Shown here: one piece after another, positions 31,557 through 64,000 of the stretch | How the letters are laid out: each line of letters opens with the position of its first letter | Numbering within the stretch: position 1 is the stretch's first letter | Source: a phage | DNA: 64,000 nt | Sequence record: PZ386953.1 | Direction: 5' to 3' (one strand) | Made by a program: the position numbers and the translations under genes | Notes under the pieces: generated by a model | What the model saw: the letters and a program-made list of their open reading frames with translations, nothing else | Databases searched by the model: none | What the model was told of the DNA's origin: nothing

Positions 31557-32762
31557 ATGATTTTCATCTACGAACATTTCAAAACCCGTAAAGAAGCACG
31601 AGACCGCCGTGCAGAACTTGAGAAGAAGGGTTTCACATGTGCCGTTGAGAAAGGCGACACAACCTGGACACTGGCAGTTGGTGCCCCAGAGTTGTTCGAT
31701 CCTGACCGTGACAGCGTCTGCTACACCCGTGAGGATTTTGAAACCCGCGAAGAGGCCCGTTTATTTCGATACGGTCTGGAAGATAACGGTAAGTACGCTA
31801 TGATCTTAGATTTAGGCGAAGGTTCCGTTAAACGTTGGGGCGTGGTATACCCACTGTGTGTTGTTCACGGTGTGGGGTTCACTGGGGTGGCAATCAAGTC
31901 AGAAGAACCTTTAGTAGAAGTCAAAGATCCGGTGCTGGAGGTGGTGAGCAGTGTGTCTCAGCAACAGACTCGAAACATCGAGCCTTTGGTGGTTATTTGT
32001 GGGGAACTCCTCCAGATCACCTGCAACGAAGGCATTTTTGAAATTCGCCGCAGCGAAAGTGAGGAAGTTTACCAGAAAGTCTTCGACCATATCTCTGTTC
32101 AGGAATATGACGAGGCAATTGGTGAAATCCTTGTCTGGTTGGAACGCAAGAATGAGTTCACTACACTTGCAGACAACCTGATTATGAAAGATGGTAAGCT
32201 CTATTACTACGGTGTAGAGATGCAATCTACCATTGCAAAGAAAATTGAGGAAGATTATATAGATGGAACACTGGACGACCGATATGTTAAATTCCTTGTC
32301 CGTCTGCTACGCAACCCGTCTGCAAAATCTGTGAACATGCTCTACGATTTCATGCAGGCTAATGACATCCAGGTTGCAGAAGATGGTCGAATCATTTGCT
32401 ATAAGGGGGTTCAGTTTAACGGAAGCAAGTGGGTGGATTGGCACAGCGGTAAAGTTCCACAATACCAGGGTGCTTTTGTATCCATGCCTCGTAACTTTGT
32501 AGAAGATGATCCGGAAGCTGCGTGTTCTTATGGCCTGCACTGCGCCAGCAAAGAGTATGCAGCGGGCTATGGCACCGTAATGATGGTTATGGTTGACCCT
32601 GCGGATGTGGTTAGTGTGCCATACCAACACAACAGTGCTAAGTGCCGTGCATGCCGCTACGAAATCGTAGCAGCACCGGAATCACGCAAAGATGGCGATC
32701 CGATTGAATACGTGGTTGACCGTGATGGTAACACTATCGACATTCTTTACGAGGAGGCGTAA
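31557..32762 (+). CDS. hypothetical protein
   Basis: 401-aa ORF, AAGGAGA RBS, tightly coupled to flanking ATPase and helicase genes. Confidence 0.45.
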   Translation: MIFIYEHFKTRKEARDRRAELEKKGFTCAVEKGDTTWTLAVGAPELFDPDRDSVCYTREDFETREEARLFRYGLEDNGKYAMILDLGEGSVKRWGVVYPLCVVHGVGFTGVAIKSEEPLVEVKDPVLEVVSSVSQQQTRNIEPLVVICGELLQITCNEGIFEIRRSESEEVYQKVFDHISVQEYDEAIGEILVWLERKNEFTTLADNLIMKDGKLYYYGVEMQSTIAKKIEEDYIDGTLDDRYVKFLVRLLRNPSAKSVNMLYDFMQANDIQVAEDGRIICYKGVQFNGSKWVDWHSGKVPQYQGAFVSMPRNFVEDDPEAACSYGLHCASKEYAAGYGTVMMVMVDPADVVSVPYQHNSAKCRACRYEIVAAPESRKDGDPIEYVVDRDGNTIDILYEEA

Positions 32763-34132
32763 TGGAAAAAGGGCAGTATGATGTAGGCACAGATGCTGCC
32801 CTCGTTGCAATCATGAGCGGTGAGAATGTCTTCGTTTCAGGACCCGCAGGTTGTGGGAAGACGTACCTCATCAACATGATCCAGTCAATGTATGGAGACT
32901 CTTGCATAACGGTTGCCCCGACAGGGGTAGCCGCTTTAAACGTTAATGGAGCAACAGCACACCGAACCTTCGATCTTGCAGCAGGTGTGAGCATGGAGTC
33001 AGACTGGACCGCAATAAGGGCAAAAACAGCAAAGCCTTTGAAGAGCAAGGCATTTACCATCCTAATTATCGATGAAATCTCTATGATCCGTGCTGATAAG
33101 TTTATAGAGATGGATAGGAAACTCCGCTTCCTTCGAAAAAATGACAAACCTTTCGGAGGCATACAGGTCATATTGTTTGGCGATTTTTACCAGGCACCTC
33201 CTGTTGTCTCTTCTATGGAGAAGGAAGCCTACTTCAACTTCTACCATACGGACTTGTGTTGCTATACCGAATCTTGGAAAGAGCTTGACCTCCACAACAT
33301 AGCCCTAATAGATCAGTTCCGACAGGAGTCTATTCGATTTGCTACAATGCTCAACTGTGTTCGTGAGGGTCGTCGTATAAAAGAGGTTGTAGCAGAACTT
33401 AATGCTCGCTGTTACAAAGGAGGTGTACCAACAGACGCTCTCACAATTTGCGCCACCAACAAACAAGCAGAGGAAGTGAACAGAAGGTTCTATGATGCCA
33501 TCAACGCCCCAGAGAAGGTATACACTGGTGAAATGAAGGGTAAGTTTCCCTCTACCTTGCCAGTTGAGCAGGAGATGAAGTTGAAAATTGGCATGAAAGT
33601 TATGATAACCGCCAACGATGTTGACCCGACGCACAAAGTACCTTATTATGTTAACGGAACACGTGCCACAATTGTTAAATTTAAGAACAAGGCGGTGGTG
33701 GTGGAGCTTGAAGATGGAACACAGGTTGACATAGAACAAAGGTTGTGGGAGAATAACGAGTATAAGCCATCTCAAAGATACAACATTGCAGAAAGGAAGA
33801 TGGAGAAGTTTATAGAGAGGGTAGTGATTGGATCATACAAGCAACTCCCTCTGAAATCTGGGTACGCCGTAACATCTCATAAAAGTCAAGGACTTACGCT
33901 AGATTGTTACAACCTGGACCTTGGAAAGAACGGAGCTTTCTCTCCTGGGATGACGTATGTTGCTTTGAGTCGAGTTAAGACAATACAAGGAATAAACTTG
34001 TTGCGTCCACTAAGAGAAGTTGACATTATTGTTGACCCGCGAGTAGTAGAGTTTTACAATACAACCTTTCCTGACTTAGACAAAATTGTCAGGAAAGATT
34101 TTGAAACCAGAGCAGAAGAGGGGGACGTATGA
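32762..34132 (+). CDS. PIF1/RecD-like superfamily 1 helicase
   Basis: Walker A GPAGCGKTY; Walker B IIIDEISMI; C-terminal SH3-like core. Confidence 0.6.
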   Translation: MEKGQYDVGTDAALVAIMSGENVFVSGPAGCGKTYLINMIQSMYGDSCITVAPTGVAALNVNGATAHRTFDLAAGVSMESDWTAIRAKTAKPLKSKAFTILIIDEISMIRADKFIEMDRKLRFLRKNDKPFGGIQVILFGDFYQAPPVVSSMEKEAYFNFYHTDLCCYTESWKELDLHNIALIDQFRQESIRFATMLNCVREGRRIKEVVAELNARCYKGGVPTDALTICATNKQAEEVNRRFYDAINAPEKVYTGEMKGKFPSTLPVEQEMKLKIGMKVMITANDVDPTHKVPYYVNGTRATIVKFKNKAVVVELEDGTQVDIEQRLWENNEYKPSQRYNIAERKMEKFIERVVIGSYKQLPLKSGYAVTSHKSQGLTLDCYNLDLGKNGAFSPGMTYVALSRVKTIQGINLLRPLREVDIIVDPRVVEFYNTTFPDLDKIVRKDFETRAEEGDV

Positions 34133-34531: not shown

Positions 34532-35857
34532 ATGAGTAAAACCAAATTAGAACTAACCTGGATAGGTAAAAACGAGCGCAAAAAGTTAGAGCCGCACATT
34601 TTGTTAGAAGATTCTAGCAAGTCTTACCACAGCCAGAAAGTGACTGAAAACGATATTTTTGATAATAAACTGATTTTTGGAGATAACTTATTAGCATTGA
34701 AGGCGCTAGAGCAAGAGTATGCAGGCAAAGTGAAGTGTGTTTACATAGACCCACCATTCAATACTGGAAGGGCTTTTGAGCACTACGATGATAGCCTTGA
34801 GCATTCCATTTGGCTGGGCTTAATGAGGGATAGGTTAGAAATAATTCGTAATCTTCTAAGTGATGATGGGGTAATATTCGTTCACTTAGATGATTGCGAA
34901 ATGGCGTATTTAAAAGTTTTGATGGACGAGATTTTTGGTCGTGCAAATCAGTTAAATACCATATCGATGACCACAAATTCCCCTTCGGGATTTAAGGCAA
35001 TAGGAGCCACAGTTTTCTCCACAGCAAACTTTTTGCTTGTATATGCAAAAGATCGCACCCAGAAACCGCTTAACAAAATCTATATACCTAAAGGGTATGA
35101 TACAGGATATAACAAATACCTATTAAACCCGGATGACCATTATAAAAATTGGACGTGGTGCGGTATTGCCGATGCGTTTGCAAAGGCCAATGGCTATAAA
35201 GATGCAAAAGAGGCCAAGAAAAAACTGCCTGATACATTCGATGATGAATTAGCACAATTCGCAATTGATAATGCAGAACGTGTATTTCAATCTGTTGCAA
35301 TCGGCGGTGGTGCTAAAATAAAGAGAAAAGAAACTATCGAGAAGTCAAAGAAAGATAGGGATAAGGTTTATGTACATCCAAATGAAGATGTTGAAGGATT
35401 TTATATCGTAAATGGTAGGCAAATGGTCTTTTACTCCAACAGGCTTTTGGAAATTGACGGTGATATGCAACCTGCGGAACTAATAACTGATGTTTGGACA
35501 GACATTAGTTGGAATGGAATAGCAAATGAAGGCGGCGTTAGTTTCAAAAATGGGAAAAAACCAGAAGCGCTTTTGAAGCGAATTTTCGAAATGTGTACGC
35601 GAGAAGGCGATTTGGTATTGGATTCATTCGGTGGTTCGGGAACTACTGCTGCTGTAGCTCACAAGATGAAAAGACGTTGGATCTCAATCGAGCTGGGTGA
35701 TCATTGTCATACCCATATTATTCCGCGCTTGGAAAAAGTGATCGATGGTGAAGATCAAGGTGGTATTTCTAAGTCTGTAAACTGGCAAGGTGGTGGTGGC
35801 TTCAGTTATTACAAACTTGCCCCGACCTTAATTGCGAAAGATAAGTCTGATCAATAA
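34532..35857 (+). CDS. DNA N6-adenine (or N4-cytosine) methyltransferase, beta class
   Basis: Motif IV IDPPFNTG precedes motif I LDSFGGSGTT. Confidence 0.7.
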   Translation: MSKTKLELTWIGKNERKKLEPHILLEDSSKSYHSQKVTENDIFDNKLIFGDNLLALKALEQEYAGKVKCVYIDPPFNTGRAFEHYDDSLEHSIWLGLMRDRLEIIRNLLSDDGVIFVHLDDCEMAYLKVLMDEIFGRANQLNTISMTTNSPSGFKAIGATVFSTANFLLVYAKDRTQKPLNKIYIPKGYDTGYNKYLLNPDDHYKNWTWCGIADAFAKANGYKDAKEAKKKLPDTFDDELAQFAIDNAERVFQSVAIGGGAKIKRKETIEKSKKDRDKVYVHPNEDVEGFYIVNGRQMVFYSNRLLEIDGDMQPAELITDVWTDISWNGIANEGGVSFKNGKKPEALLKRIFEMCTREGDLVLDSFGGSGTTAAVAHKMKRRWISIELGDHCHTHIIPRLEKVIDGEDQGGISKSVNWQGGGGFSYYKLAPTLIAKDKSDQ

Positions 35858-37117: not shown

Positions 37118-37882
37118 TTGAAATTTATCTATAAAGAACACTACCACAAAGGTGTTGTGTGGAGTCTATTTGACGGATCTGGCGGTGCAGTCATTGACTG
37201 GGCAAAAGCTGGATATCTGTGCCTGTGCTTTAACGCAGAAGGTGCTGACCACGGCAGTTATGCAGAGGTGATCACCGATCATCCCAACATTCACTATGTG
37301 GACTATTGGATTGACCCGTGGTTCCCTCAGGAAACTTTTTGCATGTATCCGGCTCCAGATTTTATTCTTGCATTTCCTCCGTGCACGCATTTAGCGGTAT
37401 CAGGTGCTGCACATTTTAAGAAAAAGCTGGCTAAGGACCCCATGATCCAAATTAATGCTGTAAAGGATGCTCGGGTTGCGGAAGAGCTGGGAGAGATTTA
37501 CGATTGCCCGTGGCATGTAGAGAATCCTGTGGGTGTTATGTCCACACTGTGGCGCAAACCTGATTACCGTTTTCACCCTTCGGATTATGGCGGGTATTTA
37601 CCGGAAGATGATGTAAACCCATGGTTTCCTGAATTTATAGCTCCACGTGATGCCTATCCAAAAATAACTTGCGGCTGGATAGGTAATGGATTTATAATCC
37701 CAGCCACAAAACCTGTCCCGCAAATAGTTGACGCGGTTAGCGGGTATTCCATGCAACACGCCAAGCTGGGTGGAAAGAGTGCAAGAACGAAGATGATTCG
37801 AAGCCTCACACCACGTGGCTGGGCAAAAGCCGTATTCCTAGCAAACGAGCCTGTAGTAAGGAGCAGAATTAATGGGAAGTAA
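37118..37882 (+). CDS. DNA cytosine-C5 methyltransferase-like protein
   Basis: Motif I LFDGSGG, motif IV PPC, motif VI ENP in canonical order; TTG start 7 nt after AGGAGA (tool GTG start lies inside the terminator). Confidence 0.45.
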   Translation: MKFIYKEHYHKGVVWSLFDGSGGAVIDWAKAGYLCLCFNAEGADHGSYAEVITDHPNIHYVDYWIDPWFPQETFCMYPAPDFILAFPPCTHLAVSGAAHFKKKLAKDPMIQINAVKDARVAEELGEIYDCPWHVENPVGVMSTLWRKPDYRFHPSDYGGYLPEDDVNPWFPEFIAPRDAYPKITCGWIGNGFIIPATKPVPQIVDAVSGYSMQHAKLGGKSARTKMIRSLTPRGWAKAVFLANEPVVRSRINGK

Positions 37883-39950
37883 ATTTATGGCATCTGCATA
37901 CAACCGTTTCGGTGAGCCAAACCCGAAAGCAACTAAGTATAAAAGTGGGGGAAGTGTGAAACGAGACTATCGTGATGAAAAAGAAGTTGAAACTGTAGAG
38001 ACTGTTTTAGAAAATACTAAAATTGTCCCTGTCCCACAACAAAATATCGGTCTGATGGCTGCACAATATTTTGGTGTGCGATCAGCATTGTCCCAAGAAG
38101 ACGGTGTGACAGTCACTGCAACATATTTCCCATATTACGACCGCTACGGAAATCTGTCTGGTTTCAAAAAGCGTGACTGGACTATTCCTAAAGAGCAAAG
38201 GGGCCATTTCTCCGTTGTTGGCATCGTAAAGGCCAACTCCCAGATGTTTGGTCAAAAGCTGTGTGCATCTTCCAACAACCGTAAGCAGATTAACGTTTGT
38301 GAGGGAGAAGGTGATGTTATTGCAGCATGGCAGGCTGCATATCAGATACAAGTAAAAGGGATTCTCACCAACGCTAAAGCCCCGGCAAAGGTGAAGCAGT
38401 GGGCTAAAGAGGTCCAGGACGGGATCGACGCAGTTATCAACGGTGGTGATCTGGCAGGAAAACCCTGCCTGCCTTTTGTTGGAATTAACTGTGGATGTGC
38501 AAACGCAGTAGATACTTTTGCAAACAATGAGAAGTTTATCCGTAGCTATGGAACAGTTGTGCTGGCAATGGATAACGATGCAGCTAACGAGGTAGAGAAG
38601 CAAAAACACGTCATTAAAGGTGTTGAGGCCACGCACAATATCGCAGCATTTTTGATGGCTGATAACGTTTACCACGTAGAATACCCTGGTGAAGTAAATG
38701 ACCCTGACGGTGTAAAAGATATCCGAGACATGCTGAAGGCTAAAAAGCTGGAAGATATTGTCAACATGTTCCGGCACCCTGTTAAATATGTGCCTGATGC
38801 TGTGTCGGATTTAGAAGACTTCTCTATCGAGTCTTTGCGGAAAAAGACTTCCAACGGGGTAGATATCAGTGCAGAGTTCCCAAAACTGCAAAAAATGCTA
38901 AAAGGCTTGCACAAAGGGACACTTGTAATGCTTACAGGTCCATCAGGCGGCGGTAAAACAACCGTGGCTAAAAAACTGGAACACTGTATTGCAAGATACC
39001 TAATGGACCCGACATGCCCGAAGGCCGATGACTATGAAGAGGATGATCGTCTATGCATGATTCATCTTGAGGAGGACCCAGAGGAAGCAATTAACTCCTT
39101 GTATGCAAACCAGTTAGGGTTTGATGTTAAAGAGTTTGTTGAAGATCCTAGCCAGTTTTTAACTGATCAAGAACACGCAGAGATTCACCAATCATGGGCA
39201 AAAGCTGGAAAAATCAAAGTGTTCAAACATTTCGGGTCTATTCCAGTGGACGAGTTGATTACCAAGCTTAAGCAAATGGTTTGCCTGTACCATTGTCGTT
39301 ATATTGTGCTGGATCACCTGTCCATGGTAATTTCAGGGCTTAATGTTAAGGATGAGCGAAAAGAACTGGACATGGCTATGACCCAACTGGCTGCGTTTTG
39401 TAAGCAGTTTAACGTGTTTATCTTGGTGATCGCTCACCTCAAACGTACAGAGATTGTGCCCCCTAAGGACAAGGATGGTAACCCATTACCTTTCTGGTAT
39501 CCTGTGCGAAAAGAGAATTTGCGAGGATCGGCTGGGCTTGAACAGTTGAGTTGGGTAGTCATAGGTGTCGAGGCCGAAGAAATGGTGGATCGTTCTCGTG
39601 GACGTGTCCGTCTGGTAGGTCTTAAAAACCGTCCAGCAAAAACTTTAGGTATTGCTGACACTTTAGTTATGGATCCGCATACAGGTAAGTTCCATGATGC
39701 CAGTAATTGGTACTGGGACAAAGAAATGCAGATGTTTACAGACGGAGAAGGTGGGGAGGTTGTTTGGAGACCTCAGGCTATGTTTGAGGATCAGGAGCAT
39801 GCAGTTGTAGAAACACCTATGGGCAAGGTTGTGGCTGATAAGGTTGTAACACCCACTGTCAAGCCTATTGACACGCAGGAAGACCTCCAATACGATGATC
39901 CATCCTCTGATCCGGTCCCTGGTTTTGAGGATGATGAAACACCTTTTTAA
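37872..39950 (+). CDS. primase-helicase (TOPRIM + DnaB-like)
   Basis: TOPRIM-like EGEGD and DNDAANE; Walker A GPSGGGKTT; precedes the polymerase. Confidence 0.7.
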   Translation: MGSKFMASAYNRFGEPNPKATKYKSGGSVKRDYRDEKEVETVETVLENTKIVPVPQQNIGLMAAQYFGVRSALSQEDGVTVTATYFPYYDRYGNLSGFKKRDWTIPKEQRGHFSVVGIVKANSQMFGQKLCASSNNRKQINVCEGEGDVIAAWQAAYQIQVKGILTNAKAPAKVKQWAKEVQDGIDAVINGGDLAGKPCLPFVGINCGCANAVDTFANNEKFIRSYGTVVLAMDNDAANEVEKQKHVIKGVEATHNIAAFLMADNVYHVEYPGEVNDPDGVKDIRDMLKAKKLEDIVNMFRHPVKYVPDAVSDLEDFSIESLRKKTSNGVDISAEFPKLQKMLKGLHKGTLVMLTGPSGGGKTTVAKKLEHCIARYLMDPTCPKADDYEEDDRLCMIHLEEDPEEAINSLYANQLGFDVKEFVEDPSQFLTDQEHAEIHQSWAKAGKIKVFKHFGSIPVDELITKLKQMVCLYHCRYIVLDHLSMVISGLNVKDERKELDMAMTQLAAFCKQFNVFILVIAHLKRTEIVPPKDKDGNPLPFWYPVRKENLRGSAGLEQLSWVVIGVEAEEMVDRSRGRVRLVGLKNRPAKTLGIADTLVMDPHTGKFHDASNWYWDKEMQMFTDGEGGEVVWRPQAMFEDQEHAVVETPMGKVVADKVVTPTVKPIDTQEDLQYDDPSSDPVPGFEDDETPF

Positions 39951-40008: not shown

Positions 40009-42786
40009 ATGAGCATGTGGTCGTTCGACTTTGAGTCATCCGGTTTGCTGGAAGATCCAGATCTTTATTATCACTGCGGCCTGTTTAAAGAGCTGAATAA
40101 GAACCGTTTTATGCTGTTCCTTCCTCTAAATGACCGCACACACTACTCCGAAGAGGATATAGAGAAGGCTAAGAACTTTATTCTGGCAAAGAAAACTCTT
40201 CATAAAGATTTTGAAGTTCGCATAGCAGATTTTTCGGAGTTGGAAGGTTGGCTTACAGGCAATTCCGACTGGTCACCAACAGCTTTGAACTGCCATAACT
40301 GCTACAGTTATGACTTTATGCTGATGGAAAGATTATCCGGTATTCATTTTGATATGTTCCGTGATCCTAAATGCATGGGGACTATCAACGACCACCAGGT
40401 TAACCTGTTTGATACGTTGGCGATGAGCAGAATCTTGTGGCCTGATCGCCCTTTACCAAAAGGTTGTCCGGACTCTGTATTCAACCCGGTTACTAAGAAA
40501 ATGCAGCCTGTTGGTCCTCACGGCCTTATGGCATGGGGCTACGCCCTTGGTAACCAGAAAGTTCAAATTGATGACTGGCGCGATCTTCCGTTGTGGAAGT
40601 ATGTGGATCGTGTATTCGAGGACGTTATCATCCAGGAGCTGCTCTGGAAAGAGCTGGTAGCGGAATCAAAAGGTGTATTCTACGGCAAATCTGACATGCA
40701 GAACTTTATGTACGATCCAGCCAAAGAGAAGCCGAAAGGGTTCAAGAAAATCACCTGGAAGAACGCATTACGCCGAGGCATGCTGCAGCACTTCCTGATG
40801 GAGCTGCAGGCCCGTCAGGGTGTATACTTCGACATAGATGGAGCTATTGCTTTACGTGACCGTTGTGATGCGTGGATGAAAGAAATCGCTGATCGTGTTG
40901 AACCTCAACTTCCTTTAAAAGAGCTGTCAATGTCTCAGCGGCCCAAGTTCCCTGAAAAGCCGTTTAACCAAGATGGGACAATCTCCAACAATGGTTGGAA
41001 ATGGTTAAAAGATAAGCTTGGCTATCCTGTGGACATGAGTGCTTTGGAGTTCAAAGCCCCGCCTAAGCGAGCATTTACCTCCACAGGAGATGTCAGCAAG
41101 ATGGGGATAAAATGGTGTGAAGAGATGGGCTGCAAAGACCCTGATAAGATGGCTGATTTCTTGAGAGGCTATATTAAGGGCACTTCCACACCACAACCTT
41201 TACCTAAAGAGCTGATGGATCAGGCAATAAGTGATCTACAGCAGAAGCGAATGCCGGACTGCAAGATACCTATGAAAATCAGCAATCAGGACGACATTAA
41301 GCGATACCTGATCAGTGCTGGTTGGCTTCCGACAATGTGGAGAACTAAGGATGTAACTAAAGACAGCAAGAAGAAAGCTCTACCTGATGCAGATGTTGAT
41401 GCACGAGTATATGCATACATGGACGAGCTTTTAGAGTCAGAGTATTGTGACCTGATTATCAACTTCTGGAACAAAACTGATGCTAAGTTTCAGACAACCG
41501 TGCACAAGTTCCGAAGCTTTCCTAACTCCGAAAGGATTAAAAAGGAAGTATTCGGGAAAATACGTAGAAAAGCCAGAGCACTTATTACTTCTCCGCAGCT
41601 GAAAGATACGTTTGGACACCTATGCCCAAATCTTGAAAAATTGAACGGAGAGATGGCTAAAGATATCGTCTTGTGGTTATCATTGCGAAACCGCAGATCG
41701 GTCCTTGATCCAATCAAGGAGGATAAGGTTGATACTGGTCTTCTTAATCACCCACGTTTGAAGATTGACCATAAGCTTCCTGCTAAAAGTTCTGGATTAA
41801 CAAACACTTCCCGACAGAAACACAGTATTTGTGCAAACATGCCTAAACCATCTCCTAAAGTGGTTATGGGTAAAGAGATGCGCAGTCTGTGGGGTGTTCC
41901 TCCAGGATACTTTGAGATCGGTATTGACGGGTCCAACTTAGAGCAGCTTATCGGGGCTTGGGGTGCCTTTGAGTTCGACAACGGCCTGTATTACGATGTT
42001 GTAAGTAACGGGGATGCCCACCAAAACAATGCTGAGGCATATACGAAAGTAGCAGGTAGAGAGGTGTCTCGTAACGACGGTAAACCTATCACGTACGGGG
42101 TTATGTATGGGGCACAAAAAGATAAAGTTGCAGACATGCTGGATATCTCCCCAGAGTTGGGGCAAAGGGTAATCGATGCGCTTTGGGATGCCAACCCTGG
42201 TCTTAAAGGGCGTAAAGAGGATCTGGAGAAATTCTGGGAAGCAACGGGTAAGAAGTTTATCTACTCTTTTGATGGTCATGCTATCTGGACCCGATCTAAA
42301 CACTCTTTACTTAATGCATACCAACAAAATGGTGGTGCATCGTTGTGTGACTTAGTTGGGATACTCATGCACCACCAAATGGTGAAGCGTGGGTGGTACG
42401 ATGAAGGTGTTCGTCGTATTATTTATTACCATGATGAGTACCAACTTCAGGTCCCTGACACGCCTAAGTATAAGACTGTGTACACCTTCGACACAATTGA
42501 AGAATTGGAAGCATTTAAGGCAGAGCAGGAGGCCAAACTTCATGTGTTTGACGGTCATAAGTACAAAAAGGCACGCAAGGATGAAAACGGAAACGAAGTG
42601 GTTGACAGAGACGGAAACACGGTGTACGATCCTATCCTGAACGATGACGGAAAGCTTGAACTTATCTGGAGCCCTGTGGGTGAAATGGTGGTGCATTGCT
42701 TCTGGCAAGCTTCTAAAATGATGGGCGTTCCATTCCAGATCACAGGTGAATACTTGTGTGGTCGGAACTGGGGTGATTGTCACTAA
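40009..42786 (+). CDS. family A DNA polymerase with 3'-5' exonuclease domain
   Basis: Exo I FDFES, motif B K-x3-YG (RNDGKPITYGVMYG), motif C YHDE; AAGGAGA RBS. Confidence 0.8.
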   Translation: MSMWSFDFESSGLLEDPDLYYHCGLFKELNKNRFMLFLPLNDRTHYSEEDIEKAKNFILAKKTLHKDFEVRIADFSELEGWLTGNSDWSPTALNCHNCYSYDFMLMERLSGIHFDMFRDPKCMGTINDHQVNLFDTLAMSRILWPDRPLPKGCPDSVFNPVTKKMQPVGPHGLMAWGYALGNQKVQIDDWRDLPLWKYVDRVFEDVIIQELLWKELVAESKGVFYGKSDMQNFMYDPAKEKPKGFKKITWKNALRRGMLQHFLMELQARQGVYFDIDGAIALRDRCDAWMKEIADRVEPQLPLKELSMSQRPKFPEKPFNQDGTISNNGWKWLKDKLGYPVDMSALEFKAPPKRAFTSTGDVSKMGIKWCEEMGCKDPDKMADFLRGYIKGTSTPQPLPKELMDQAISDLQQKRMPDCKIPMKISNQDDIKRYLISAGWLPTMWRTKDVTKDSKKKALPDADVDARVYAYMDELLESEYCDLIINFWNKTDAKFQTTVHKFRSFPNSERIKKEVFGKIRRKARALITSPQLKDTFGHLCPNLEKLNGEMAKDIVLWLSLRNRRSVLDPIKEDKVDTGLLNHPRLKIDHKLPAKSSGLTNTSRQKHSICANMPKPSPKVVMGKEMRSLWGVPPGYFEIGIDGSNLEQLIGAWGAFEFDNGLYYDVVSNGDAHQNNAEAYTKVAGREVSRNDGKPITYGVMYGAQKDKVADMLDISPELGQRVIDALWDANPGLKGRKEDLEKFWEATGKKFIYSFDGHAIWTRSKHSLLNAYQQNGGASLCDLVGILMHHQMVKRGWYDEGVRRIIYYHDEYQLQVPDTPKYKTVYTFDTIEELEAFKAEQEAKLHVFDGHKYKKARKDENGNEVVDRDGNTVYDPILNDDGKLELIWSPVGEMVVHCFWQASKMMGVPFQITGEYLCGRNWGDCH

Positions 42787-50213: not shown

Positions 50214-50403
50214 GCTTAAATCTGCATGGAACATCGCTGTGGGGGACGAGATCCGTATCCCAGGTGGAAAGACCATTATGAAGATATCTCGTATTGAGTA
50301 CGAAGGTGACCGTGTATTCCACATCTTCGCAGAAGATGGTCGAGAAATTTATATACAGGCAGGTTCTCACATCTATATCCGTAAGAAAGGGGACGACAAA
50401 TGA
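50206..50403 (+). CDS. hypothetical protein
   Basis: ATG 5-6 nt after AAGGAGGG. Confidence 0.4.
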   Translation: MFKLKSAWNIAVGDEIRIPGGKTIMKISRIEYEGDRVFHIFAEDGREIYIQAGSHIYIRKKGDDK

Positions 50404-50729
50404 CAGAGATCATCATTTCAACTGCAGGGTATGTGTTCCTGACAATCATTGCACTGACTATTTTGGTGACAGTGTATGGGTTTGTTATCCTTCCTATCCT
50501 TGAGACATTTAGTTTGTGTCGGTGTTGGAGAAAAGCTTACGGTCCACAACCATGGAAGGACTGGCCCCACCTGGTGCGCTTAGCGTTCTCTTATGCTTAC
50601 GATCACTACAGTAGTGCATGCATAACCGGATACCACGCCCACAACTGGAGCTGGGAAGGGTTGAGGAAATGGAATGTTACAAAGACCATACCTCTGCGCA
50701 TGTACAAACCTAAAAACAAAGACAACTGA
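50400..50729 (+). CDS. membrane protein
   Basis: 109 aa with long N-terminal hydrophobic segment; ATGA overlap. Confidence 0.4.
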   Translation: MTEIIISTAGYVFLTIIALTILVTVYGFVILPILETFSLCRCWRKAYGPQPWKDWPHLVRLAFSYAYDHYSSACITGYHAHNWSWEGLRKWNVTKTIPLRMYKPKNKDN

Positions 50730-50732
50730 TAC

Positions 50733-50761
50733 TTGAAAATTCCTGGCATATCAAGTATAAG
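50733..50761 (+). promoter_or_regulatory. sigma70-like promoter inside a palindrome
   Basis: TTGAAA-17 bp-TATAAG; embedded in TACTTGA...TCAAGTA inverted repeat. Confidence 0.4.
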
Positions 50762-51036
50762 GGGGATTTCTAAAATGGATTTCCTCCTTTTGATATTTCA
50801 CCGGGCTGGATATTTTAAAATTCTTAGAAAATCAGAAAATGGATCGAAAACTAAAATGTATTTTTCAGAGTAGGCGCGACAAGCTGAATAACTCATCCTA
50901 TCGTTTGCACCATATTCCAGGCCACCATTATAGATTTTCCCACACATGCTCACATCCTTCTACCAGAACTTTCCCACTCGCCCTTGGCCTTTTATGGCAA
51001 TAATCCAGCCACTATCTTGAAGTTGCGGTACAGCTT

Positions 51037-51128
51037 TCCAAGTACTCGATCTGTTTTTCGTTTCAAAGATTGAATTTTCTGAAAATTTTTCTCGATAAAT
51101 TTCCAAGTACTCGATCTGTTTTTCGTTT
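51037..51128 (+). repeat. iteron-like direct repeats
   Basis: TTCCAAGTACTCGATCTGTTTTTCGTTT at 51037-51064 and 51101-51128; partial third copy TCGATTTTTCGTTTT at 51189. Confidence 0.7.
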
Positions 51129-51332
51129 TCTGAATCGGATTTTCTGGAAATCGTTCCAGCTCTCTACCTGAAATTTTTGGGGACGAAATCGATTTTTCGT
51201 TTTCAGAAATGGATTTTTAAAATTTCTATATGGGAATATTTTATGGGATACTGTTTTATAGGAAATTGTTACGGAGGGTAATTAGCATGCTAATTAAATT
51301 TATTAAATGCGAGGAGTTCTCATTTAGAATTT

Positions 51333-51350
51333 TGAATGATAATCATTCTC
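51333..51350 (+). promoter_or_regulatory. Fur-box-like sequence
   Basis: TGAATGATAATCATTCTC matches about 15 of 19 positions of GATAATGATAATCATTATC; weaker copy at 51464-51480. Confidence 0.3.
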
Positions 51351-51365
51351 GTTTGCAGAATAACG

Positions 51366-51388
51366 GGCAGGCCCGGTGATTGTCTCCC
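51366..51388 (+). repeat. 23-bp GC-rich element, copy A
   Basis: GGCAGGCCCGGTGATTGTCTCCC; exact reverse complement at 60968..60990; diverged tandem copy at 51505..51540. Confidence 0.75.
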
Positions 51389-51745
51389 GGCCCCTGTTGC
51401 CCCGGCTTGTTATTATAGTATCACACAGGACAAAGAAGGCAAGGATTTTTTGCATAAATTTTTAAATGATAATGATAACCGTTCTCATTTTATGCAGCGC
51501 CCATCCCCGGTGGTTGTCTCCCCCGTCACCGGTGCCTGCCGTCCTTTCGATAGGTATATTGTGCCCCCCCTGGCGGGGCCGCTGTCAACACCTTTTCAAA
51601 AAATTTTTCTAACCTGATGCGCTAACCGTTGCAACCTGGCGGGGCCAGCCTGGCAGGACCTAACTGACCAGGTGGGAGAGGGTGAAATCTTGCAAACCTG
51701 GTAGGCCCATGCTGTAGGGTAAACAATTGAAGAGGAGGTACAAAA

Positions 51746-61842: not shown

Positions 61843-62262
61843 ATGAACATTAAATCTGATAATCCGGCATATAGCTTTGATAACGCTTTTTGTCACGGTC
61901 CGGCGGCGAAAGGATTCGAAATCGATGGTAAACTAATTATTGTCAATGTTGACGGGGAAGAGGTTGCAGTATATCCGGTGGCGGACGTTAAAAGCCGTCT
62001 ACAATGCCGCATGGATGTTACCGCCTATCAGCTTGATCCGGTCCGCGTAGTTGCCCTGGTCCTGGAGGAAGAGATCAAAGCCATGCATCATAGCAACAAG
62101 TTTATCGGTGACGCGCAAGATAATATGAAGGTATGCCGCCATAAAGTTAACGAAGTTCTTAAAGAATACGGCTTCAAAGATCTGATGATCAAGCGTGATG
62201 AAAAATTCCGCTATCGTAATGACCTGGCAAATCGAATCTATCAAATATACGAATCATTATAA
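61843..62262 (+). CDS. hypothetical early protein
   Basis: 139 aa; promoter 61764-61792; terminator follows. Confidence 0.5.
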   Translation: MNIKSDNPAYSFDNAFCHGPAAKGFEIDGKLIIVNVDGEEVAVYPVADVKSRLQCRMDVTAYQLDPVRVVALVLEEEIKAMHHSNKFIGDAQDNMKVCRHKVNEVLKEYGFKDLMIKRDEKFRYRNDLANRIYQIYESL

Positions 62263-62280
62263 TTTCTTAACTGAACTATC

Positions 62281-62310
62281 AGGGGCTTTAAAAGGCCCCT
62301 TTCTTTTTGT
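62281..62310 (+). terminator. intrinsic terminator
   Basis: AGGGGC...GCCCCT hairpin then TTCTTTTTG, ends the early array. Confidence 0.65.
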
Positions 62311-62879
62311 CTGTATTTCTCCTACCACAAACGGCCCCACCTGGCAAGTGGAATAATTGACTAGCCATCAATCCCACACACTGTACAAATATACATGTAA
62401 AATAGCTATTGCATAATCTTTCATTGTGTGGTAGCAGGGCCATTTTTACACGTTTTTCCTTCCAAAATTGCACGTAATGCCGCTATTGCACAAAATTTAA
62501 CCTGATGCATATCTTCAGTGTCTTGTCAACAACTAAAAATCTTTATAAGTCATACACTTACACACTCACAAAAGCGTGTTCTACGTGAAAAATCGAGTAT
62601 AACTATAGCCGCCAGATCTCAGAATTTACGTACGTTCACCATTCTATAGTCTGCTAAGTATTTATTCCAACCATAGAATAATGGAATAGTCAATACCTGC
62701 ATAAAATAATTATTCGTGTAAACTGCATAACATAAATCAGCTTAGGTGTCAACATTTTTCGTAAACAGCCTGAAATTATCACGGTGAGTTATCATAAACA
62801 GAGAAATCTTTAGTCGTCTAATGTTTACTGTACATTACTATACTTACTGGAATCATTAGATGACTAAGAGAAAGATAAG

Positions 62880-63360
62880 AAATAATTAACAATACAATTA
62901 TTTTATCTGTAACAATAAGGCAACTATGCAAACGAATGGCATGGCGCGACGGAGTCGCGACATAATATAAAAGCAGTAACCATCACCCCCGTGATAGTTT
63001 GTCTGCAAACTATTAATCAGATCATAGTTGCCTTGTATTTAGTTAATCATGACATAACAAGCAAGGCAACTATAGATCTGCTAATAGTTGCCCTGCTTTT
63101 ATATTATGTCATATATTATTAACCTGTTAATTGTCAGCTTATTGGCTGTTAGCTTGTCAATTGTTAACTTGTTAATTGTTATCATGCAAACGAATGTCAT
63201 GGCTTATCATCTTTGTGTAAACAGTCAATCATGTAAATGATAAGTATGTGAACAGTTATCCATGTAAACTATTAGACATGTAAACAATCAGGTGTGCAAA
63301 AGTGTCATAGTATGTCACTATTGTGTCTAAAGTGTCACCAGTATGTCAGACAAGTTTTTC
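62880..63360. repeat. repeat-dense AT-rich non-coding region
   Basis: AAGGCAACTAT in alternating orientation x4 (62918, 63026, 63063, 63085); GCAAACGAATG(G/T)CATGGC x2; several (T/C)GTAAAC motifs; TTAATTGT repeats. Confidence 0.6.
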
Positions 63361-64000
63361 TCCTCTTTGTCAAGTGCTGCATGAAAAATTTACAAACTGG
63401 TATGGTAGCATTTTTGCGGCCCTGTTTACATTCAGCGATGTATGTATAAACCTTGCTGTGTGGGCGTTTAGACGTCTAGACGGTTGGAAGTCTGCAGGTC
63501 AATATCTAATCTATTGGCTGCTAACCATATCCCACACAAATAGTAATAAATATAATTGTTATATGCGTAAACAGTAACTCATGTTATCAATCCCTGTATG
63601 TATCGCCAGTGGTGCGCATAATGGGTATTATGTTAAATTGCCCGTAATGATAACTATTCTCACAATGATAGGTATTCTCATTCACCCCCACAAGATAGGT
63701 TGCAAATGTTGTGCCACTGTGTGAACGGCCTAGCCTATTAATTTGCCTCACTGCCTTGATATTTGAGAATTGTTATAAGAATGAGAAGTATTCCCATTTC
63801 GTCCGCTTGGCAGCACTCCAGTCGCTACCGGCTCCTGACAGGGCAGCACTCCTGTCGGTCAGGTCAAAATCGTGGTATAACTGGACCTGTTCAGATATTT
63901 CTGGCTGACTCTTCAGGCCTGTGTGGGAAAAGCCGACCCCTCCGGCGGCGGGGAGGGGGTCAATTAAAAAATTTACGGGGTATATGAAGCGCTCTTCAGG

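Follow-up and report, generated by a model that had tools for sequence, protein, structure and literature searches.

Where do the rV5-like phages (Vequintavirinae) start replication, and what switches their early region? These phages are among the commonest coliphage isolates and are used in therapy and biocontrol cocktails. An earlier note, made from the sequence alone, pointed to a gene-free region with direct repeats (50730–51330) in a 64,000-nucleotide stretch of phage DNA (PZ386953.1; hereafter, the window) and proposed it as a candidate replication origin or regulatory hub. We found that this region is the left two-thirds of a ~1-kb non-coding module. What had been a vague gene-free repeat region can now be described as a module whose motifs are named and whose distances are fixed; it is found subfamily-wide and has outlasted its flanking genes. 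The question of replication start and early-region switching in rV5-like phages is now directly testable.

A non-coding module kept across the Vequintavirinae

The window derives from a Vequintavirus, an rV5-like myovirus. The 1.7 kb around the region is 99.5% identical to Escherichia phage ime, and at least 80% of this 1.7 kb is covered by 110 phage records. In BLAST searches against distant genera, only 51.29–51.45 kb was detected. When the homologous loci were read, the whole architecture was found to be kept. We compared the loci of Mydovirus (KB57), Certrevirus (CR3 and phiTE), Seunavirus (GEC_vB_MG, FENT2, and LNA4), ABPH49, and four IMG/VR contigs. This shared architecture, seen in four named genera of the Vequintavirinae, in one phage without a genus assignment, and in the four metagenomic contigs, is the main new result of this study. 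Scans of IMG/VR for the Fur-like box and for a threefold CTCGATC pattern returned mostly unrelated contigs; only L188, L193, L216, and L226 were homologous. No description of the module was found in the papers on rV5, phiTE, CB7, BASEL, or Septuagintavirus or by full-text search, and literature searches gave nothing specific on a Vequintavirinae origin, a transcriptome, or an account of this element.

From left to right, the module consists of one to four GATATTT(G) motifs, tandem GAAAT(G/C)G(T/A)TTTT-type motifs, a variable spacer of fixed length, three composite repeats (R1–R3), a short AT-rich or mixed linker, one to four copies of a palindrome (TGA(G/T)AATcATTCTCA) placed 29 bp apart, and a GC-rich conserved element. 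Exactly three composite repeats are present at every homologous locus, and the heptamer CTCGATC is invariant in R1 and R2 of all ten aligned genomes. The spacings of the repeats are 65 and 74 bp in the window and 74–78 and 63–67 bp elsewhere, and their sum is 139–143 bp (133 bp in ABPH49). The distance from the last GATATTT to the first CTCGATC is 234–238 bp in 11 genomes or contigs and 247–251 bp in three. The third core is mostly located 142–149 bp before the last palindrome; this distance is 152–154 bp in the Certrevirus-type loci and 112 bp in GEC_vB_MG, which has a single palindrome, and the differences correspond to roughly one and three helical turns. A lack of conservation in relatives, which the earlier note had listed among the grounds for refutation, was not observed: the repeats are kept genus-wide, and their number, core, and spacing are kept in several other Vequintavirinae genera. 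The genes that flank the module belong to different families depending on the genus (phrog_2531, phrog_12959, phrog_12463, and NADAR); therefore, the module is kept for its own sake. In Phapecoctavirus, which belongs to a different subfamily, the GATATTT motifs, three palindromes, and the GC-rich element are kept, and the repeats are unrelated and A-rich (138 bp).

Conservation within the genus was measured as the mean pairwise identity per block in an alignment of nine Vequintavirus genomes. The identity is 0.954 in the upstream U block (50808–50872), 0.90 in R1, 0.92 in R2, 0.97 (0.966) in R3, and 0.96 in the Fur-like boxes. In the neighboring gene, codon positions 1, 2, and 3 have identities of 0.96, 0.97, and 0.88, respectively. 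The U block, R3, and the Fur-like boxes are as conserved as codon positions 1 and 2, and the spacer (50873–51034; identity 0.77) lies below the third positions, which is block-wise purifying selection. Insertions and deletions of 1–2 nt in the spacer offset each other so that its length is held. A role as functional cis-acting DNA is well supported by these sequence comparisons.

The region does not encode a protein. It had been described as free of open reading frames (ORFs) of 60 amino acids or more, and this claim was borne out: the longest ORF overlapping 50730–51330 on either strand has 54 amino acids. Across the nine Vequintavirus genomes, no shared open frame was found at the same place, and the variable sites have no three-base periodicity (p = 0.22–0.81). 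The micro-ORFs annotated here in GenBank are inconsistent between records (32, 70, or 84 amino acids; 30 amino acids; or none). A protein-coding gene was rejected on these grounds. A 606-bp stretch is present in 117 records, nearly always with an identical length; among these, all records without the names of other genera are Vequintavirus, counting 16 "Campylobacter phage" records.

Over ~600 bp, selection thus preserves specific short sequences together with their spacing, independently of the neighboring genes, and evidence for RNA structure was not obtained, as described below. For these reasons, the module very probably serves as a DNA scaffold, on which binding sites at fixed distances would hold a multi-protein complex.

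Composite repeats, upstream block, and Fur-box-like palindromes

Two exact direct repeats are present as the earlier note had claimed, but their dimensions needed correction: instead of 28 bp at 51037 and 51101, 64 bp apart, the repeat (TTTCCAAGTACTCGATCTGTTTTTCGTTT) is 29 nt long, occupies 51035–51063 and 51100–51128, and has a spacing of 65 bp. With 82% identity, the similarity runs on to a length of 57 nt. An exact 29-mer is specific to this lineage (relatives match at 23–26 of 29 positions), but the 65-bp spacing never changes. A partial third copy, placed at 51189 in the note, was recovered at 51171–51217, where it is 72% identical to copy 2. The three composite units lie on the plus strand. 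R1 (51035–51099) contains a CTCGATC core (51045–51051), a T-tract, box B (AGATTGAATTTTC), and box C (CTGAAAATTTTTC). R2 (51100–51173) has its CTCGATC core at 51110–51116. R3 (51174–51245) has a degenerate core, CGAAATC (51184–51190), in Vequintavirus and CTCGATC in other genera.

The repeat unit common to the genera is GGT(A/T)CTCGATCG, TTTTTC, (A/G)ATCGTATTTTTTC, and CGAAAAAATTTTT, in this order, with a total length of 63–78 bp. When the 24 tabulated units are aligned, their first 40 nt stay in register without insertions or deletions. In the Seunavirus units, TTTTC recurs every 21–22 bp with a spectral power of 2.3–2.7 (shuffle 95th percentile, 0.63–0.83), which is iteron-like two-turn phasing. 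In the repeats of this window, TTTTC occurs approximately every 20 bp and is irregular. Two other kinds of repeat array were considered and rejected. The 29-nt repeat and the 36-nt gap mimic the geometry of a mini-array of clustered regularly interspaced short palindromic repeats (CRISPR), but the "spacers" are alike (82% over 57 nt) and conserved across genera. The tandem ~36-nt repeats of a ToxI or pseudo-ToxI array differ in unit length and sequence, and the pseudo-ToxI of phiTE is located at 106.7 kb (PMC3475682), whereas the module homologue of this phage is at 38.9–40.3 kb.

R3 holds an imperfect 16-pair hairpin (51173–51210; core ACGAAA/TTTCGT), which was flagged as terminator-like. The locus could accordingly be read as specifying non-coding RNA or a structured or U-rich leader, with the repeats acting as pause or terminator units (hairpin and U-tract) or as protein-sponge repeats. 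The gene strand is T-rich in most genera (0.38–0.42 T versus 0.24–0.27 A; 0.31 T in ABPH49; the Certrevirus arrays are unbiased), each unit can by eye be drawn as a short AT-rich hairpin followed by TATTTTTTC, and TG-preceded promoter-like GATATT motifs are present upstream in some genera. However, the module gave no Rfam match at E values up to 5 and no tRNA or tmRNA. The folding z-score of 51030–51300 is −1.1 on the plus strand and −1.3 on the minus strand. When single units from five lineages were folded, 17 of the 18 had z-scores between +1.1 and −1.7, and the only significant one was a Certrevirus unit. The stems are largely explained by the self-complementary CGATCG, which occurs twice per unit, and by the adjacent T- and A-tracts. 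The linker lengths are strictly kept over ~600 bp, which is better accounted for by the geometry of DNA than by an RNA. RNA structure being unsupported, a role at the DNA level is favored, and we consider the RNA reading unlikely.

The second cluster of motifs is located upstream of the spacer. Two GATATTT(C/T) motifs, named D, start at 50792 and 50809 on the plus strand (50792–50816); other genera have one to four copies 11–18 bp apart. They are followed on the same strand by the U/M block (50817–50872), a tandem array of GAAAAT and AAATGGATTTT-type motifs that is very AT-rich and near-invariant within the genus and has homologous blocks in other genera. The short repeats of the GAAAAT/GGAAAT type noted earlier are indeed concentrated in the gene-free region, which contains 11 GRAAAT/ATTTYC hexamers (18.3 per kb versus 1.6 per kb window-wide). 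No other 600 bp of the window is as dense in them; the density is ~12 times that of the rest, and none of 300 dinucleotide shuffles reached it. The spacer between the block and R1 (50873–51034) is C-rich on the plus strand and variable in sequence, with a length fixed at 161–164 bp.

The left end of the region is marked by a palindrome (50726–50761, plus strand) with 11-nt arms (50726–50736 and 50751–50761) that are 91% complementary. It contains the promoter-like hexamers TTGAAA-17-TATAAG (50733–50761). The palindrome itself is real; the promoter that the earlier note saw in it is only a weak candidate, because its −10 hexamer ends in G, it is not among the calls of a consensus scan, and slur16 and YP-6 lack it; it is specific to some Vequintavirus species. 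The DNA that comes after this weak, uncalled promoter (50810–50869) ranks among the six 60-bp stretches with the lowest stability in the window.

A second stretch of low stability follows R3. The AT-rich stretch at 51208–51307 has a GC content of 0.24 and ranks second in instability among the 100-bp stretches of the 64 kb (z 3.8), which bears out the report of AT-rich DNA beside the repeats. It includes a perfect 18-nt palindrome, TAATTAGCATGCTAATTA (51279–51296), which is kept in Vequintavirus, with A or G at the center and T or C at one arm position, and is absent from other genera.

AT-rich DNA of this kind might be curved and be kept because host nucleoid proteins (H-NS, Fis, or SeqA/Dam) bind it, or the locus might serve another DNA transaction, for example as a site of packaging initiation or a recombination hotspot. 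An exact match to the high-affinity consensus of H-NS, TCGATAAATT (PMC2094087), is present at 51092–51101 and is invariant within the genus. A/T-tracts have a periodicity near 10.75 bp, which is borderline in the window, and GATC is enriched three to four times in the arrays of other genera. However, the H-NS match is single, the motif is not enriched in the window (25 versus 19 expected), and it is not kept in other genera; an H-NS nucleation motif was therefore rejected. GATC is not enriched in the window, and its enrichment elsewhere is explained by the CTCGATCG core, so that Dam/GATC clustering was also set aside. That one specific heptamer, CTCGATC, is invariant speaks for a binder that recognizes sequence and not DNA shape. 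With regard to packaging, two assemblies begin and one ends 150–350 bp past the right edge of the module (LC739538 (phiWec189), MG065682 (A112b), and MG065655 (C2)). These ends lie inside the GC-rich duplicated element and could be breakage at a repeat rather than real ends. Certrevirus genomes were found to be fully circularly permuted without preferred ends by BAL-31 digestion and read depth (PMC7344957), and a pac site is not supported. A nucleoid-protein platform or a packaging or recombination site is improbable, slightly more so than the RNA reading.

The palindromes of the module resemble the binding sites of Fur. The Fur-box consensus of Enterobacteria is GATAATGATAATCATTATC / TGATAATnATTATCA. 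In the window, two Fur-box-like 7-1-7 palindromes 29 bp apart are located on the plus strand at 51304–51355, at and just past the right edge of the region; the upstream copy is degenerate and the downstream copy is TGATAATCATTCTCG. The downstream palindrome (51337–51351) matches the canonical Fur 7-1-7 box at 13 of 15 positions, and the contig L216 has a perfect consensus at the homologous place. With up to three mismatches allowed, the window contains 16 matches to the Fur motif versus 5.2 expected (none of 100 shuffles reached 16), and they concentrate in its two non-coding regions. Fur-like 7-1-7 palindromes (TGATAAnnnTTCTCA) were noted at 51304–51355, 51467–51489, 63646–63680, and 63780–63796, that is, in both large non-coding regions. 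In distant genera, including Phapecoctavirus, BLAST detects nothing of the locus except the boxes at 51.3 kb. Judged by sequence, the palindromes fit the definition of Fur boxes and are candidate Fur operators. Like the boxes of Fur-regulated promoters, they are arranged in arrays over hexamers resembling −35 and −10 elements. However, the preferred half-site is TTCTCA and not the canonical TTATCA, and another dimeric binder, such as a phage protein, is therefore possible. No description of Fur control over the early region of a virulent phage was found in literature searches. A Fur-responsive switch would be an example of a virulent phage that senses the iron status of its host.

These palindromes bear most directly on the possibility that the module controls transcription and has no role in replication. 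The repeats and the upstream block would then be upstream sites (enhancer, UP, or architectural) that set the promoters at 51.33–51.9 kb with their Fur-like operators, and in other genera also a divergent leftward promoter. Part of the early programme would thereby respond either to host Fur (iron) or to a repressor of the phage. The palindromes overlap a promoter-like pair, TTGAAT-18-CAGAAT, and from genus to genus the distance from R3 to the last palindrome changes by approximately whole helical turns. Just downstream, extended −10 and TTTACA elements are conserved, and the early region in which the module is located has many sigma-70 promoters at close intervals (promoter scan; PMC3606486, PMC7344957). 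In Seunavirus and Mydovirus, a strong leftward promoter (TTGACA-18-TGnGAAAAT) is also present. However, this promoter, which sits between R3 and the palindromes, has no equivalent in the window. The pair TTGAAT/CAGAAT scores only 8 of 12, and the CGGAAT of phiTE is without the key A2. A 600-bp apparatus with a fixed spacer of ~170 bp is unusually elaborate for a sigma-70 promoter, and the products encoded downstream, tiny hypothetical ORFs that vary from genus to genus, give no evident reason for such conservation. We regard a pure control region as less likely than not, though nearly as likely as an origin. The leftward promoter was seen on the minus strand of L011, L014, L136, and L137 (alignment columns 563–592), where it points into the repeats.

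The promoter of rrnB P1 is preceded by an UP element and three phased Fis sites. The module likewise has three phased upstream sites and A/T-tract-rich DNA ahead of a promoter. It differs in that no match to the Fis consensus was seen by eye, in its much larger distances (−145 to −290 and approximately −550), and in that no strong core promoter is evident.

The GC-rich conserved element on the plus strand (51357–51745) is non-coding and is present in Vequintavirus as two copies of ~134 nt, the second with the Fur-like box at 51467–51489. The earlier note had called it a structured element; as RNA, its folding energy is no better than that of shuffles (z +0.2), and it has no Rfam match. Across genera, it keeps GGTG(A/T)TTGTCTC, an extended −10 (TGTGTATAAT), and two CTTTACA motifs. 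With these motifs kept and its folding ordinary, the element looks like promoter or DNA signals and not like a structured RNA. In other genera, a small minus-strand gene is located just 3′ of the module (L011, 2827–3012; L013, 2776–3207; L010, 2814–3080; DUF7170/phrog_4653 in KB57). The window has the second copy of the GC-rich element at this place.

A candidate transcription-coupled replication origin

Among the readings of the module, we rank a transcription-coupled replication origin of the rV5-like phages first, followed by a pure control region, then RNA, and lastly a site for nucleoid proteins, packaging, or another DNA function. The first reading is itself tentative, and we would give it somewhat less than an even chance. 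The proposal of an origin or regulatory hub is well founded as far as a functional cis-element is concerned; an origin specifically is a candidate reading, and a hub is about equally consistent. Origin and promoter control are not mutually exclusive, as origins commonly contain regulated promoters.

The origin could work as follows. A sequence-specific protein of the phage or the host would bind CTCGATC, ATCGTATTTT, and GAAAAATTTTT in the three repeats and the upstream GATATTT/GAAAT block. The two clusters would touch via a loop or a wrap, which the fixed length of the spacer (~160–185 bp) would allow, and this contact may strain or open the low-stability DNA at 50810–50870 and 51208–51307. 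Activation or an RNA primer would come from transcription at promoters within the module, gated by the Fur-box-like palindromes, after which the T7-gp4-like primase-helicase and the polymerase, which are encoded 8–13 kb upstream, would take over.

Virulent, circularly permuted phages (PMC7344957) have few expected cis-elements, and an origin is among them. The module includes two of the window's least stable DNA stretches, and the phased repeats and embedded putative promoters also speak for an origin.

In pSC101 and P1, inverted-repeat operators overlap a promoter right after the direct repeats. The inverted-repeat palindromes of the module similarly overlap promoter-like hexamers after its repeats. 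With iteron origins in general (pSC101, P1, R6K, RK2, and lambda ori; PMC4980987, PMC5043065), the module may share direct repeats in helical phase, judged by the 21–22-bp TTTTC period of Seunavirus, and an adjacent AT-rich stretch. It differs from them in that its units are longer, no Rep/O-like gene follows the promoter, DnaA and IHF sites are absent, and there is no similarity to plasmid DNA. Moreover, the palindrome half-site ATTCTC occurs within the repeats only in Certrevirus.

A second parallel is provided by phage T4. Its oriE is a syntenically conserved cluster of direct repeats that depends on an early promoter, and oriF and oriG consist of a promoter and an AT-rich unwinding element (PMC3016281). 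Like the module, oriE belongs to a virulent, circularly permuted myovirus, its direct repeats lie in non-coding DNA of the early region and are syntenic in relatives, host-type promoters are present, and no obvious dedicated Rep gene adjoins it. The repeats of oriE are 12 nt long and evenly spaced and have no sequence similarity to those of the module, which instead has three units of 63–78 bp, a second motif cluster ~170–185 bp away, and operator-like palindromes. A possible resemblance to oriF and oriG lies in promoter-like elements (50733–50761; TG-preceded GATATT elsewhere) directly before low-stability DNA (50810–50870). However, the minimal oriF and oriG are ~100 bp in length and without repeats, whereas the promoters of the module are weak or unverified, and its most conserved promoter-like element, the Fur-like box, faces GC-rich and not AT-rich DNA. 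By analogy, the module may work most like T4 oriE or the iteron-plus-operator layout of pSC101 and P1. It is not a member of these families, because an initiator gene and host-factor sites were looked for and not found, and sequence similarity is absent.

Several observations weigh against an origin. No initiator-like (Rep/O) gene was found next to the module; its neighbors are small, unannotated, and not conserved between genera. Neither a DnaA box (TTWTNCACA) nor an IHF consensus (WATCAANNNNTTR) is present in 50.7–51.4 kb. The cumulative GC skew rises steadily through 51 kb without an inflection. The units of 63–78 bp are three to four times as long as classical iterons (17–22 bp), and the array of the window has only two GATC sites and no enrichment, against the three- to fourfold enrichment in other genera. 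The AT-rich linker between R3 and the palindromes seems, by eye, to be less AT-rich in GEC_vB_MG and ABPH49. Similarity to plasmid replicons was not detected, the sole "plasmid" match being an rV5-like phage genome. Even for T4 oriE, a link between the iterons and origin activity has not been established (PMC3016281). Furthermore, the window has a second, larger non-coding region (62262–64000, running off its end), which is rich in short repeats, carries three further Fur-like boxes, and includes the least stable DNA of the 64 kb. In the rV5 genome paper, an origin was sought by skew analysis and none was found; the skew changed only at transcription switches (PMC3606486). The second region corresponds to 104.8–106.6 kb of rV5, where that paper reported the only skew change of relevance (PMC3606486), and it is at least as good an origin candidate as the module.

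A bolder proposal makes the module both the primary replication origin and the early switch of the Vequintavirinae: a phage protein would read the CTCGATC repeats, host Fur would gate firing via the Fur-box array, and the same regulator would act at 62–64 kb. We consider this combination a long shot. A Fur-gated origin, if true, would mean that a virulent phage ties its replication start or early programme to the iron status of the host. An origin at this locus would more generally give a handle for marker-frequency studies, for engineering (safe insertion sites and replicon vectors), and for the recruitment of T7-type replisomes in large myoviruses.

The second non-coding region was found only in Vequintavirus. 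It follows a terminator-like hairpin, recognized by eye, at ~62283–62310. It contains a perfect 18-nt inverted repeat (62959–62976/63093–63110), a tandem repeat of TTGTTAAC (63147–63181), and CATGTAAAC-type repeats (63216–63291).

Neighboring genes and database records

All neighboring genes are carried on the plus strand and are small early-region ORFs of unknown function. The earlier note had placed the last replication-module gene at the left flank, which is inexact because the ORF that adjoins the region (50400–50729) belongs to phrog_2531, a family without a known function. The replication genes are located 8–18 kb upstream: a Dda-like helicase (32762–34132), the primase-helicase (37872–39950), and the DNA polymerase (40009–42786). 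Approximately 15 small genes of unknown function separate them from the gene-free region. No Pfam domains were found in the flanking ORFs, which fall in PHROGs of unknown function.

The module gave no similarity to the E. coli chromosome. A record filed in PLSDB as an E. coli plasmid (CP057073.1, 137,565 bp) is an rV5-like phage genome, in which the whole module is 92.9% identical. In the 16 GenBank records named "Campylobacter phage" (MG0656xx, e.g., MG065672 and MG065658; host C. jejuni), the region is present at 94% identity, and these records look mislabelled or contaminated.

A DNA methyltransferase of the N6/N4 type (PF01555) is encoded at 34532–35857. It may matter for the module, as GATC and TCGA are present in the repeat cores.

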